This document shows positions 2,988-58,448 of a DNA stretch of 64,000 bases, one piece after another. The number at the start of each line of letters is the position of its first letter. The stretch's first letter is position 1. The position numbers and the translations under genes were made by a program. This DNA is from an uncultured Verrucomicrobiae bacterium (GTDB lineage Bacteria > Verrucomicrobiota > Verrucomicrobiia > Chthoniobacterales > JAFAMB01), in the NCBI GenBank assembly GCA_963762565.1, contig CAVXLD010000003.1:544001-608000 (forward strand), read 5' to 3'. A model generated the notes under the pieces. That model was given only the letters and a program-made list of their open reading frames with translations, had not been told where the DNA came from and made no database searches.

Positions 2988-3080
2988 CCAACACTCCATT
3001 ACGCCGGCACTCCAACACTCCGCGCGGCTGAAATCGAGGACGAGGACGACGACGAGAACGAGTACGAGTACGAAGCACCT
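2988..3080 (+). repeat. Composite octamer (CCAACACT) plus hexamer (GAGGAC/GAGAAC) element
   Basis: Reverse-complement copy at about 8058-8140. Confidence 0.8.
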
Positions 3081-3094
3081 AACGGTGCAGGCCT

Positions 3095-3137
3095 AAAAAA
3101 AATACAGCCCCCCGCATCCGCTGGATACGAAGGGCTG
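3095..3137 (-). terminator. Intrinsic terminator
   Basis: Minus strand CAGCCCTTCGTATC-loop-GATGCGGGGGGCTG followed by TA and T8. Confidence 0.8.
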
Positions 3138-3245
3138 CTGTTCCCCCCAGAACAATCCGAAAAAACTTTCATTGTGACAGTGCTACAGATTTTAGGGATT
3201 TCAAATGATTTGTTGTCGATTGTACCGCTAGGTTTAGTTGCATAT
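3095..3245 (-). ncRNA. Putative sigma54-dependent small RNA (or very short peptide mRNA)
   Basis: About 150 nt bounded by a -24/-12 promoter and a terminator, with only a 24-codon ORF contained inside. Confidence 0.5.
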
Positions 3246-3254
3246 TGCATGAAA

Positions 3255-3291
3255 TGCAACTTTTTCGCCAACTCGTCGTAACCTATTGATG
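3255..3291 (-). promoter_or_regulatory. Sigma54 -24/-12 promoter with adjacent IHF-like site
   Basis: Minus strand TGGCGAAAAAGTTGCA (GG-N10-GC) at 3270-3255; cATCAATAGGTTA at 3291-3279 fits WATCAANNNNTTR except at W. Confidence 0.6.
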
Positions 3292-3405
3292 GGGTGGTCC
3301 TTTGCCTAGCTCAAGAGCTGGCGATTTGAGTACATTTCATCCCTCTCATTGCTTTCCGATTTGCTGTCGCTTACCGATAGTCGTTAATTTTTAGCAGCAA
3401 ATCGC

Positions 3406-5064
3406 ATGCAAACTATCGTCATTGGCCATCGCAACCCCGACATGGATTCGATCTTTTCCGCGATTGCTTACGGGGAACTAAAGCGAGAACTCGGCATGCC
3501 CGACGTATTGGTGGCGCGCGCCGGAAACACGAATGAGCGCATTGACTTTGTGCTCGAAAAGTTCGGTGTACCGGCGCCGGAGTTTATCGGGGATGTGACC
3601 CCGAAAGTTGGCGACCTGATGGAAACGAAAGTGGTATCGGTGCTGCACCACTCGACCATCAATAAGGCAATCAATTCCATCGAGCAAAAGCGGTTGCGGG
3701 GATTGCCGGTGGTGGACGATGAAGACCGTTGTCTCGGTTTGCTATCCGCCTGGAAAATCACGAACCACCTGTTTCCTTCGCGAGAAGAAACGAGCAGTTC
3801 TCGGCTGATAAACGCTTCGATCGCGGATCTGGCTCAGGCCTTAGAAGGGAATATCCTGGCCGGCAAAGCTGACACGGAAGAACGCCAGTTGATCATCATG
3901 GTCGCCGCGATGACGCTGGAAGCCTTTTTGGGACGGTTTCAGCACTATGATAGCGGAAAGATCGTTCTATTTGTGGGCGACCGCGACGATGTCCAACTGG
4001 CCGCCATCCGAGAGGGCGTCAAAACGATTGTAGTCACCGGCGGGTTAGGGGTTTCGGCCGACGTCCGACTCGCCGCTAATAACGCGGGCGCTTGTTTAAT
4101 CTCGAGTCGATTTGACACAGCGACGTCGGTTTTGCTTTCCCGGAGTAGCGTGCGGGTCGATCAGTTCGTAGAGCCGAACTTCACGAGTTTCACCGCAGAG
4201 ACCACCCTACAGGCGGCCCGGAAAATCGCGGCCAATGCGCCTGATTTCTTCATATTTCCGGTGCTGGGCGAGGACAAACGGTTGGTGGGGATCCTGTCCA
4301 AGAGCGATTTTTTGAGGACGGTGCCGCGCCAGCTGATCCTGGTCGATCACAACGAGATGACGCAAGCGGTCAAAGGAGCTGATGAGATCCCGATCATCGA
4401 AGTGCTGGATCATCATCGTCTGGGGAGCTTTCGGACGGATGTGCCGATCCTTTTCTGGAACAATCCGGTGGGATCGACTAGTACGATCGTCACTCTTTGC
4501 TACCAGCAGTTCGGGATCGCCATCAAACCGCCGATCGCGGGGCTGTTAATGGCGGGCCTGATTTCCGATACGCTCAATCTGACTTCACCGACCGCGACGC
4601 CGGTTGATGCGCAGGTGTTGCAAGACTTGAGCAGGATCGCCGGGGTGAAGGCGGACGAGCTGGCCAAGGAGATGTTCAGCGTAGGATCGCCGCTGTTGAG
4701 CCTGGCGCCGAAGGATGTGGTGGTAGCCGATTGCAAAGATTACGAAGAGAGCGGTTTCCGGTTCAGTGTGGCTCAAATCGAGGAGCTGAGTTTTGCTTAT
4801 TTCGATGACAAAAAGGCGGCGTTGTTTGACGCGCTGGAAGAGTATCGAAAGAAAAACGACGCTTATTTCAGCTCGTTATTGGTCACCGATGTGAACACCC
4901 AAAATTCGCGGTTGTTGATCGCGGCTCCGCCGGAGTTCCAAGAGCTGATCCATTATCCAAATCTCGGGCCGAATCTGTACGAGCTAAACAATATCGTCTC
5001 GCGAAAGAAGCAATTGGTTCCCTATTTACTGGATTGCCTGCAACGCGTGAACGCTAAACTCTAA
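3406..5064 (+). CDS. ppaC: Mn-dependent inorganic pyrophosphatase, family II, with CBS and DRTGG domains
   Basis: GHRNPDMDS, VDHNE, DHH, SDT and VSRKKQ motifs; internal CBS/DRTGG insert. Confidence 0.95.
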   Translation: MQTIVIGHRNPDMDSIFSAIAYGELKRELGMPDVLVARAGNTNERIDFVLEKFGVPAPEFIGDVTPKVGDLMETKVVSVLHHSTINKAINSIEQKRLRGLPVVDDEDRCLGLLSAWKITNHLFPSREETSSSRLINASIADLAQALEGNILAGKADTEERQLIIMVAAMTLEAFLGRFQHYDSGKIVLFVGDRDDVQLAAIREGVKTIVVTGGLGVSADVRLAANNAGACLISSRFDTATSVLLSRSSVRVDQFVEPNFTSFTAETTLQAARKIAANAPDFFIFPVLGEDKRLVGILSKSDFLRTVPRQLILVDHNEMTQAVKGADEIPIIEVLDHHRLGSFRTDVPILFWNNPVGSTSTIVTLCYQQFGIAIKPPIAGLLMAGLISDTLNLTSPTATPVDAQVLQDLSRIAGVKADELAKEMFSVGSPLLSLAPKDVVVADCKDYEESGFRFSVAQIEELSFAYFDDKKAALFDALEEYRKKNDAYFSSLLVTDVNTQNSRLLIAAPPEFQELIHYPNLGPNLYELNNIVSRKKQLVPYLLDCLQRVNAKL

Positions 5065-57047: not shown

Positions 57048-58448
57048 TCATTTGTCATCATCTTCGGCCTCGCCCTTCAGCTGATTCAGCTTATTCCGCA
57101 GGGTTCGAATACTGATCCCCAGCATCTGAGCGGTTTGGGTGCGATTGCCTTTCGCTTGCCGGAGCGCATGCATGATGTATTCCCGTTCGACTGATTCGAG
57201 CGGAATCACTTCTTCCGGGAAGGCCAAAGTTGTGCCGGACGCGAGCGTGATTCGCTCGATTGGCGGTTCGCCGATGTCGATGTTTGGAAACATAGGCGAC
57301 ATAACCTCCGCGTTGATGCCTTCTTCTGGGTCATGCAAAATCACGGCCCGTTCGATGACATTCTGTAGCTCGCGCACATTGCCGGGCCAATCGTATGCCA
57401 TCAGGATGGCCATGGCTTGTGGTGTCACCGCGGGCGAGTGAATACCGGTGCGCTGAGCAATCCTCTTTAGAAAAGCATCAACCAGCAGAGGGATATCTTC
57501 CTTCCGCACTCGCAGGGGCGGAACGGTGATCGGGAAAACGTTCAAGCGATAGTACAGGTCCTGCCGGAACTCCTGACGCTCAACTGAGGTAGCCAAATCA
57601 CGGTTGGTGGTTGCTAACACTCGCACATTCACGCGTATCGTGCGGCCTCCGCCGACCCTTTCGAATTCGCGTTCCTGTAGCACTCGCAAGAGCTTGGCCT
57701 GAAGTCTCGGGGGTATTTCACTGACTTCGTCCAACAGAATGGTCCCCTGGTCTGCGAGCTCGAACCGGCCTTCTCTCTTTTCTGTCGCCCCGGTAAAAGC
57801 TCCTTTTTCGTGTCCAAAAAACTCGCTTTCGATCAGGTTGTCAGAAATCGCTGCGCAATTGACCTTGATAAACGGTTTGGCAGAACGCGCACTGGCCCGA
57901 AAGATCTCGGTCGCAACGAGCTCCTTGCCGGTTCCATTCTCACCGCCGATGAGAACCGTGGCTTCGGTGGAAGCGACCTTTTGGATCAGCTGACGCAATT
58001 GGCGGATTCTCTGGCTTTCACCGATCAAAGGCGCCGGGTCGGTTGCTTGGTACGAGAGAACCTGGTTGACTTTAAGGGCCTGAATGAAGCTGGCCGCCTT
58101 GTTCATGACGACCTCGATTTGCCCGGAGGAGAATGGTTTGATGATGTAATCGAAGGCTCCGGCCCGGATGCAACTGACGGCGGACTCAACTGACCCGTGC
58201 CCCGTCATCATCACAATGACCGGCTTACGCGGCTGGCTGCTTAGCCTGGCTAGGAGATCAGTACCGTCGCCATCCGGCAAACGCACATCGACAAACATTA
58301 AGTCAAAGGGTTCCGCGGCAACCGTTCGTTCGGCCTCGCTAATGGTCGCGCAGAGGGCCACCGCAAGACGTTTGCCTTTTAATTGCAACTCAAGCGAGCG
58401 ACGAATTGTGGCGTCGTCATCAACGACGATTACTTTCTCGATGGCCAT
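57048..58448 (-). CDS. Sigma54-dependent response regulator (NtrC/AtoC family)
   Basis: Receiver domain (DD, D, KPF), GE.GTGKE, GAFTGA and Fis-type HTH. Confidence 0.96.
   Translation of the reverse strand: MAIEKVIVVDDDATIRRSLELQLKGKRLAVALCATISEAERTVAAEPFDLMFVDVRLPDGDGTDLLARLSSQPRKPVIVMMTGHGSVESAVSCIRAGAFDYIIKPFSSGQIEVVMNKAASFIQALKVNQVLSYQATDPAPLIGESQRIRQLRQLIQKVASTEATVLIGGENGTGKELVATEIFRASARSAKPFIKVNCAAISDNLIESEFFGHEKGAFTGATEKREGRFELADQGTILLDEVSEIPPRLQAKLLRVLQEREFERVGGGRTIRVNVRVLATTNRDLATSVERQEFRQDLYYRLNVFPITVPPLRVRKEDIPLLVDAFLKRIAQRTGIHSPAVTPQAMAILMAYDWPGNVRELQNVIERAVILHDPEEGINAEVMSPMFPNIDIGEPPIERITLASGTTLAFPEEVIPLESVEREYIMHALRQAKGNRTQTAQMLGISIRTLRNKLNQLKGEAEDDDK

Follow-up and report, generated by a model that had tools for sequence, protein, structure and literature searches.

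The DNA analysed here, called the window below, is a stretch of 64,000 nucleotides (nt) from the genome of an uncultured Verrucomicrobiae bacterium of the order Chthoniobacterales (contig CAVXLD010000003.1, positions 544,001 to 608,000), and the element in question is a candidate small RNA (sRNA) gene near its beginning, read on the minus strand; coordinates without a contig label are positions in the window. The divergent neighbour of this gene, on the plus strand at 3406-5064, encodes a CBS-domain DHH/DHHA2 pyrophosphatase, and downstream of the RNA the minus strand carries a DUF4230 gene, an amidase gene and a CDP-alcohol phosphatidyltransferase gene. An earlier reading made from the letters without database searches (the sequence-only reading) had listed here an IHF-like site, a GG-N10-GC motif, a palindrome, a short open reading frame (ORF), a sequence motif and a terminator with a T8 tract, and all of these are present on the minus strand where it placed them. 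They are collected in Table 1 together with the elements defined in the present analysis, which points to a shorter RNA and another promoter type than that reading had proposed.

Table 1. Features of the candidate RNA locus, in window coordinates.
Feature	Position	Strand	Remark
IHF-like site CATCAATAGGTTA	3291-3279	-	sequence reading
Sigma-54-like motif TGGCGAAAAAGTTGCA	3270-3255	-	GG-N10-GC; 9/11 against TGGCAC-N5-TTGCA
Palindrome AGTTGCAT-N10-ATGCAACT	3261-3236	-	sequence reading
ORF of 24 codons	3243-3169	-	judged non-coding
Conserved upstream block AACTAAACCTAGCGGTACAATCG, imperfect palindrome	3217-3239	-	kept in 18/22 family loci
Predicted -35 hexamer TTGAAA	3199-3204	-	TTGA invariant in 22/22 family loci
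Predicted -10 hexamer CACTGT (sigma-70-type)	3177-3182	-	nAnnnT in 22/22 family loci
Proposed small RNA of ~75 nt (5' tail, G-loop hairpin, terminator, U tail)	~3096-3170	-	5' end predicted
Hairpin 1	3139-3154	-	stem U3154-A3139 to U3149-G3144; loop GGGG 3148-3145
Invariant GUUCUGGGGGGAAC inside hairpin 1	3153-3140	-	
Motif TCTGGGGGGAACAG	3151-3138	-	
G6 run, proposed seed for C-rich mRNA leaders	3143-3148	-	invariant
Intrinsic terminator hairpin, 16 pairs, 3-nt loop	3104-3138	-	terminator scan
T8 tract (U tail)	3095-3102	-	T-rich tail retained in aligned copies

When positions 3090-3300 were compared with 40 relatives by BLAST, conservation was found to be confined to the last ~70 nt (~3165-3096 of the window). 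The 3' 63-71 nt show 95.7-100% identity in 19 loci of the same family, from at least 10 genera, and the core is still recognisable across the order, in some genomes at several places. None of the 45 copies, from 44 BLAST loci, departs from the 14-mer GTTCTGGGGGGAAC. The consensus fold obtained from an alignment of 32 diverse copies consists of two hairpins with 20 pairs, the first of which (GUUCU-GGGG-GGAAC) is invariant in 32/32 sequences, while the second, the terminator, carries compensatory changes in 10 of its 15 consensus pairs and is the only part of the fold that does so. Many of the terminator pairs are G-U, so that the helix forms on the minus strand only, which speaks for an element that acts as RNA and not as DNA. 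The 75-mer itself folds at -35.2 kcal/mol (z = -4.9), and none of 200 shuffled sequences was equally stable. The conservation of hairpin and terminator is far beyond chance, and the terminator recognised in the sequence-only reading is conserved in relatives both by identity within the family and by compensatory changes across the order.

With a covariance model derived from the 32-copy alignment, the window locus scored 89.9 bits and the RNA was detected in 119 of 121 Chthoniobacterales genomes (≥90% complete), with 1-7 copies in each, covering 16/16 families and 54/54 genera; the only two genomes missed are of 0.9 Mb. In a sample of 151 genomes from the phylum, scores of ≥78 bits were reached only in the three genomes that belong to the order, and outside it no convincing match was seen, the scores there being only 20-27 bits and resembling ordinary terminators. 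An exact-pattern scan with one genome per species matched at least 120 stretches, and 77 of the 80 among the matches listed carry Verrucomicrobia-type titles (Chthoniobacterales, Terrimicrobiaceae, Chthoniobacteraceae, Udaeobacter, 'Spartobacteria'). Against Rfam, no match at gathering score was obtained anywhere in the 64 kb of the window, Qrr and CrcZ included, and a permissive search (E up to 10) returned the Pseudomonas sRNA P35 (RF01677) as its sole match, which was rejected (19.9 bits, E = 1.5, terminator only, with a gathering threshold of 70 bits). The signal recognition particle (SRP) RNA of the genome lies at C10:21130-21224 (56.9 bits), and the 6S RNA model gave a full-length match at C12:361132-361312 (+) with 37.7 bits, under its gathering score of 46.4 bits, and this match probably represents a divergent 6S RNA belonging to the lineage; since both sit elsewhere, the locus is no diverged version of either housekeeping RNA. 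The literature searched held no description of this RNA, nor of any regulatory RNA of Chthoniobacterales. On these genome comparisons, the candidate RNA is a new RNA family outside Rfam and a core feature of the order.

The genes around the RNA differ between families. In the family of the window, it always has the pyrophosphatase gene on its divergent side and the DUF4230/amidase/transferase/EngA group downstream on its own strand. Such an arrangement would suit a cis-acting element, either a leader or attenuator for the DUF4230, amidase and CDP-alcohol transferase genes or the 3' end of a transcript coming from upstream. In other families, however, the neighbours are unrelated: the RNA lies between NUDIX and YhdP-like genes, before SecA, after holA or in tandem pairs, so that a leader or a 3' untranslated region is ruled out as a general explanation. 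Some genomes hold up to seven copies, some of them in tandem, the upstream gene in the window is divergent, and no riboswitch or leader family of Rfam matches, all of which makes a cis-acting role very improbable. With a context that varies by family and 1-7 copies per genome, the RNA is independent of its neighbouring genes, and we regard the putative gene as a stand-alone one. In this respect the proposal of a stand-alone regulatory RNA gene on the minus strand, ending at the T8 terminator, was borne out by conservation, covariation and variable context.

Directly upstream of the hairpin, the conserved blocks fit a sigma-70-type promoter with fixed spacing. In the window, a 16-nt spacer separates the -35 and -10 hexamers, and across the family loci the pattern occurs in 22/22, with spacers of 16-17 nt and an nAnnnT hexamer ending 21-26 nt before the hairpin motif in every case. 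The invariant ATTTGAAAT block, which the sequence-only reading had placed inside the RNA, coincides with this -35 element (TTGAAA/T). Copies in other families have an A-tract, TTGCnn, 16-17 nt and TAnnnT within ~50 nt upstream. A simple promoter test (TTGnnn, 16-18 nt, nAnnnT ending 4-26 nt before the hairpin), applied to 121 unique copies with enough flank, was passed by 74 copies, compared with 11 copies when the same test was placed 70 nt further upstream as a control and with a mean of 13.5 and a maximum of 22 for shuffled flanks; an UP-like A-tract accompanies 38 of the 74 predicted promoters. The RNA thus has a promoter of its own at a fixed distance, as a consensus match rather than a mapped start, and we infer that it is transcribed from this element with a predicted start near 3170. 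Against this stand the facts that the simple test is passed by just 61% of the copies and that the -10 hexamer of the window (CACTGT) is weak, and a second, distal promoter inside the conserved block at 3217-3239 is possible.

That block lies ~47-69 nt upstream of the predicted start and reads TTrACCGnnCGGTyAA, as an imperfect palindrome, in other genera. An activator might bind there, or the block could serve as an UP-like element or as the -35 of a second, more distal promoter. A position weight matrix scan of the genome found no second strong copy of it, the next score being 24.5 compared with 32.9. In three loci from one genus of the same family (L010, L012, L013), the block seen in other genera is replaced by two to three tandem direct repeats, CTTGGCGTGAG(A/T)TCCCTTC(C/T)GATAGCG, at ~60-150 nt upstream of the hairpin. 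In three loci from two other families (L031, L034, L035), a CRP/FNR-like palindrome, TGTGAAATTTTTCAC or GTGAAAAATTTCAC, overlaps the -35 in a class II position, which hints at control of the sRNA gene by a cAMP-receptor-type regulator in those families. Palindromes of the form TTGCA-N3/4-TGCAA, related to AGTTGCAT-N10-ATGCAACT, are present in several other genera.

This promoter geometry, together with the structure of the region upstream, leads to a different transcript from the one envisaged in the sequence-only reading, which had an RNA of about 150 nt starting near 3244. The single-sequence fold of such an RNA is weakly significant (z = -2.74), and for the 22 family loci RNAalifold detected no pairing conserved over the 100 nt that precede the hairpin. 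As these 100 nt show no consensus structure and the -35/-10 spacing is fixed, the start is placed near 3170 and the RNA comes to ~75 nt, and the 150-nt model was rejected. Since the promoter sits directly upstream of the hairpin, the "A/C-rich body" described earlier and the 24-codon ORF both fall in promoter DNA, upstream of the predicted start. The ORF had been considered as a possible micropeptide gene, and it does exist, its ATG having a counterpart in the same position in L003 and L004; in L002 the ATG is absent, an indel shifts frame and length in L003 and L004, no counterpart was found in the fetched loci of relatives from other genera, and the ORF overlaps the conserved -35/-10 geometry, which leaves next to no credence for a micropeptide.

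The sequence-only reading had also attributed transcription to sigma-54, with a promoter at 3270-3255 that would be assisted by IHF and by an enhancer-binding protein, in the manner of Qrr or CrcZ. The motif has the correct GG-N10-GC spacing, its GG and GC are kept at -117/-118 in 5/5 loci of the genus, and BLAST similarity to the relatives in the genus starts at or just upstream of it. The genome also contains rpoN, and of its 20 matches to the enhancer-binding-protein family 14 are strong, so that sigma-54 transcription is possible in the organism, and only the motif ties sigma-54 to the RNA. One of the 14 is the activator gene that had been suggested as controlling the locus, at 57048-58448 (-); the gene is real, having a Sigma54_activat match at 57528-58028, but it lies 54 kb away and nothing singles it out among the strong matches. 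As regards the motif, a site of ≥8/11 stands at the same place in just 4 of 45 copies (L001-L004), all from the genus of the window, the fifth copy of the genus retains the GG and GC but scores 5/11, and 0 of the 40 copies outside the genus have an upstream site of ≥8/11. Conservation of the -24/-12 elements in related genomes, on which the sequence-only reading had staked its proposal, therefore stops within the genus, where retention is weak evidence because those relatives are ~84% identical overall. Sites of equal quality (9/11) number 566 in the genome, and 69 of them (12.2%) lie between crude ORFs compared with an intergenic fraction of 12.9%, i.e., without enrichment. The sigma-54-like motif is not beyond chance. 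The supposed RNA body lacks conserved structure, its conserved blocks fit the -35/-10 geometry, the other-family copies have the sigma-70-type elements described above in its place, and Rfam gives no link to Qrr or CrcZ. Taken together, TGGCGAAAAAGTTGCA, 100 nt further up than the inferred promoter, is probably fortuitous and could at best serve as a promoter within this one genus, and sigma-54 initiation near 3244 appears decidedly unlikely. The case illustrates how deceptive a convincing -24/-12 match can be if it is not compared with relatives.

Because the hairpin with the G-run is the only invariant part of the RNA, its function must sit there, and we examined the regions before start codons in the genome of the window, the starts being assigned crudely as the first ATG of the longest ORFs. 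The 3' end of the 16S rRNA has the canonical anti-Shine-Dalgarno CCUCC, and Shine-Dalgarno-like motifs are hardly enriched before starts (15.3% compared with 11.8% in the background). Over the 25 nt that precede starts, CCCCCT, CCCCCC, TCCCCC and ACCCCC stand out as the most enriched hexamers (~5-fold), and C5 runs precede 2.7% of starts compared with 0.67% of the background. Many leaders are free of G and consist of tandem 7-8-nt repeats (CACCAAT, CTCACTT, GAACTCC, TGTCATT), after which come a C-run and then the start codon, for example at C12 488266, C1 866566 and C11 100499 (strand coordinates); 20-nt leaders free of G were counted at 1.3% of starts, with 0.29% in the background. Heptamer repeats also stand beside a second 13-nt copy of the hairpin motif, GTTCTGGGGGGAA, at C1:659097-659109 (minus), a copy that is not followed by a terminator and was missed by the covariance model. 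One reading of the G-run, as an anti-Shine-Dalgarno mimic, was set aside, the 16S end being canonical and the G-run being expected to form just ~5 pairs, wobble included.

Start regions (-35 to +8) of the same genome were then scanned for contiguous complementarity to UUGUUCUGGGGGGAACAGC. Sites of ≥10 nt were found nine times compared with 2.9 for shuffled cores, 5 of 200 shuffles reaching nine, and this excess was unchanged when the shuffles kept the C6 run. The 20 genes with sites of ≥9 nt include four major facilitator superfamily (MFS) carriers, a solute-binding protein, a MalK-type ATP-binding cassette (ABC) ATPase and an ABC permease, along with LacI and IclR regulators, an alpha-galactosidase, GlgE, OpcA and an amidohydrolase, the remaining seven being unrelated or unknown. 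As MFS_1 has ~75 matches among ~5,500 crude ORFs, four in 20 is unexpected (~2e-4 by binomial arithmetic).

The leader of the MalK-type gene, at C12:187561-187600 in the genome of the window, was followed further. Of 28 unique leaders homologous to it, drawn from 11 genera, 26 retain a C4-7 run whose end lies 7-15 nt ahead of the ATG, with AGA next in 12 and GAA in four, while the rest of the leader varies; the run and the AGA/GAA together complement GUUCUGGGG(GG). The mean longest match to the core is 6.9 nt, a value that 0 of 500 shuffled cores reached. Leaders with fewer C tend to extend further into AGAACAA, as would be expected if pairing to one fixed partner were maintained. We infer that this sugar-transport ATPase is the best candidate target.

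From these observations, a mechanism can be proposed. An RNA of ~75 nt would be made from ~3170 to 3096 (-) under a sigma-70-type promoter and end at its intrinsic terminator; its G-rich hairpin would pair with C-rich leaders lacking a Shine-Dalgarno sequence, just upstream of start codons, which is the least certain step; and the pairing would block initiation on a set of mRNAs weighted to carbon-source uptake, the candidates being the MalK-type ABC ATPase, the MFS carriers, the solute-binding protein and the LacI regulator. The RNA would thereby serve as a global brake on the import of sugars and organic acids. We hold this explanation as a whole, a stand-alone trans-acting sRNA gene with a sigma-70-type promoter whose G-run pairs with C-rich leaders, with moderate confidence, and we treat the pairing model taken by itself as tentative, with somewhat less than even chances.

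Several results weigh against this explanation, and chiefly against its pairing step. Sites of ≥9 nt in the target scan are not significant (20 compared with 14.3, 39 of 200 shuffles reaching 20). The MalK-type leaders are homologous, so that their shared motif amounts to roughly one evolutionary observation, and a close homologue (E ≤ 1e-90) occurs in one of five genomes from other families, with a leader that lacks the motif. The complementary site is not kept in orthologues of the MFS gene L050, that of the MFS gene L051 is absent in its genus orthologues, and orthologues of the solute-binding protein do not exceed 42% identity. The C-runs lack a wider consensus around them, AG following the run near the start in 11 of 165 cases; CCCCAGAA is just 1.9-fold enriched near start codons, and the enrichment of C-runs may reflect only the G-poor composition of leaders. 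In the five genomes from other families, CCCCCCAGAA gave 38 matches compared with five for a backwards control, but several of these are the sRNA genes themselves and most sites lie away from start codons, and as C6 runs are under-represented overall, the excess is ~3-fold at best by arithmetic. Among the 30 such loci listed, ~4 of the 23 sites outside sRNA genes are at a plausible start, and one of these is again an MFS carrier.

Expression evidence from sequencing archives is weak. In 24 candidate sequencing runs, each held ≤0.24 of the sampled words, i.e., the conserved core only, and four soil RNA libraries were examined as Logan assembled contigs, which show neither ends nor strand. The core 3096-3165 was found with one to two differences in contigs of all four libraries, and the window-specific flanks were not covered by the contigs of these four. 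Contig ends scatter, at 3, 19 and 133 nt upstream of 3165 and at 23-222 nt past the terminator. The contigs derive from relatives, and since some run 95-222 nt past the terminator and one begins 133 nt upstream, DNA carry-over or longer transcripts are possible, which also counts against the ~75-nt transcript.

The invariance of the hairpin could also mean that the RNA binds or sequesters a protein that recognises it, such as an RNA-binding regulator or a factor of the ribosome or of RNA processing. Stem and loop are invariant, without covariation, in 32/32 sequences, a pattern compatible with sequence-specific recognition; nearly all genomes of the order have the RNA, in several copies in some families, and the frequent A-tract promoters (38/74) suggest that it is abundant. 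The genome has two CsrA genes, and no match to Hfq (PF17209) was found in it (93.7% complete). A sponge for CsrA of the CsrB/RsmY type was nevertheless rejected, because GGA motifs outside hairpin 1 are limited to the family of the window and are lost elsewhere. No candidate protein was found, an sRNA with many targets would be just as likely to have an invariant seed, and the complementary motif is kept in the MalK-type leader. Protein binding is, on balance, an unlikely explanation, though a less remote one than sigma-54 initiation.

A bolder form of the trans-acting sRNA explanation is doubtful, falling between protein binding and the pairing model in our estimate: in an order whose leaders would be mostly without Shine-Dalgarno sequences and often poor in G and rich in C, a near-universal, multi-copy RNA whose invariant G6 hairpin reads C-runs adjacent to start codons would silence the shared MalK-type ATPase and the MFS carriers and act as the master switch of carbon uptake for the order, perhaps with an additional sigma-54 input in the genus of the window. 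If the G6 hairpin does read C-runs, the arrangement would be the mirror image of C-rich seeds that pair with Shine-Dalgarno sequences.

Such C-rich seeds are found in RsaE/RoxS of Firmicutes, where C-rich motifs in loops pair with the G-rich Shine-Dalgarno sequences of many metabolic mRNAs. The RNA described here resembles RsaE/RoxS in having a putative homopolymer-type seed in a loop and a motif invariant across an order-level clade, whereas its G-run would pair with C-rich leaders that lack a Shine-Dalgarno sequence, and Rfam gives no match to that family. Qrr1-5 of Vibrio are sigma-54/LuxO-dependent, Hfq-binding sRNAs; like them, the present RNA is a short stand-alone sRNA with an intrinsic terminator and one to several paralogues that share an invariant core, but it differs in phylum, in its putative G-rich seed, in the lack of an Rfam match and of a detected Hfq, and in the -24/-12 elements, present in 4/45 copies. 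It differs likewise from the protein sponges CrcZ/CrcY, whose transcripts carry repeated A-rich binding motifs and to which Rfam gives no match, its A/C-rich stretch lying upstream of the likely start and not being conserved as RNA. In its probable way of working the present RNA comes closest to short sRNAs of clade-wide occurrence such as Yfr1. Yfr1 of cyanobacteria, ~60 nt in length, is clade-wide and near-housekeeping, with an ultra-conserved short motif beside its terminator. The likeness lies in the very short length, the clade-wide occurrence and the single ultra-conserved motif next to the terminator; the sequences are unrelated, and the Yfr1 motif is single-stranded and C/U-rich whereas here a G-run occupies a hairpin loop. 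RsaI (RsaOG) of Staphylococcus has G-tracts, for which C-rich sRNAs are the main partners, and has a connection with sugar uptake; the G-tracts and the link to sugar uptake proposed here are shared, although RsaI is longer and unrelated in sequence. Spot 42 of enterobacteria is Hfq-dependent and represses several genes of carbon-source uptake and catabolism. The logic proposed for the present RNA is similar, as is the CRP-like palindrome over the -35 in three other-family copies, but there is no homology, and Spot 42 needs Hfq.

Members of Chthoniobacterales, among them Udaeobacter and Chthoniobacter, occur widely in soils and have seldom been brought into culture. The RNA is notable for its near-universality in this major, poorly studied soil order and for its unusual putative G-run seed, and it represents a first candidate core riboregulator for the order, with a well-defined gene model. 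Its invariant 14-nt motif can be searched directly in metatranscriptomes, and the candidate targets provide a testable hypothesis that ties the RNA to sugar uptake.

Directly downstream of the terminator, window positions 3033-3075 (+) carry ATCGAGGACGAGGACGACGACGAGAACGAGTACGAGTACGAAG, a member of a dispersed repeat family, and the presence of this repeat accounts for a depth spike at 3033-3070 in the RNA libraries. Under a loose pattern, the genome contains 155 copies of the repeat, mostly of the form TCGAGGACGAGGACGACGACGAG(A/G)ACGA..., which are apparently intergenic.

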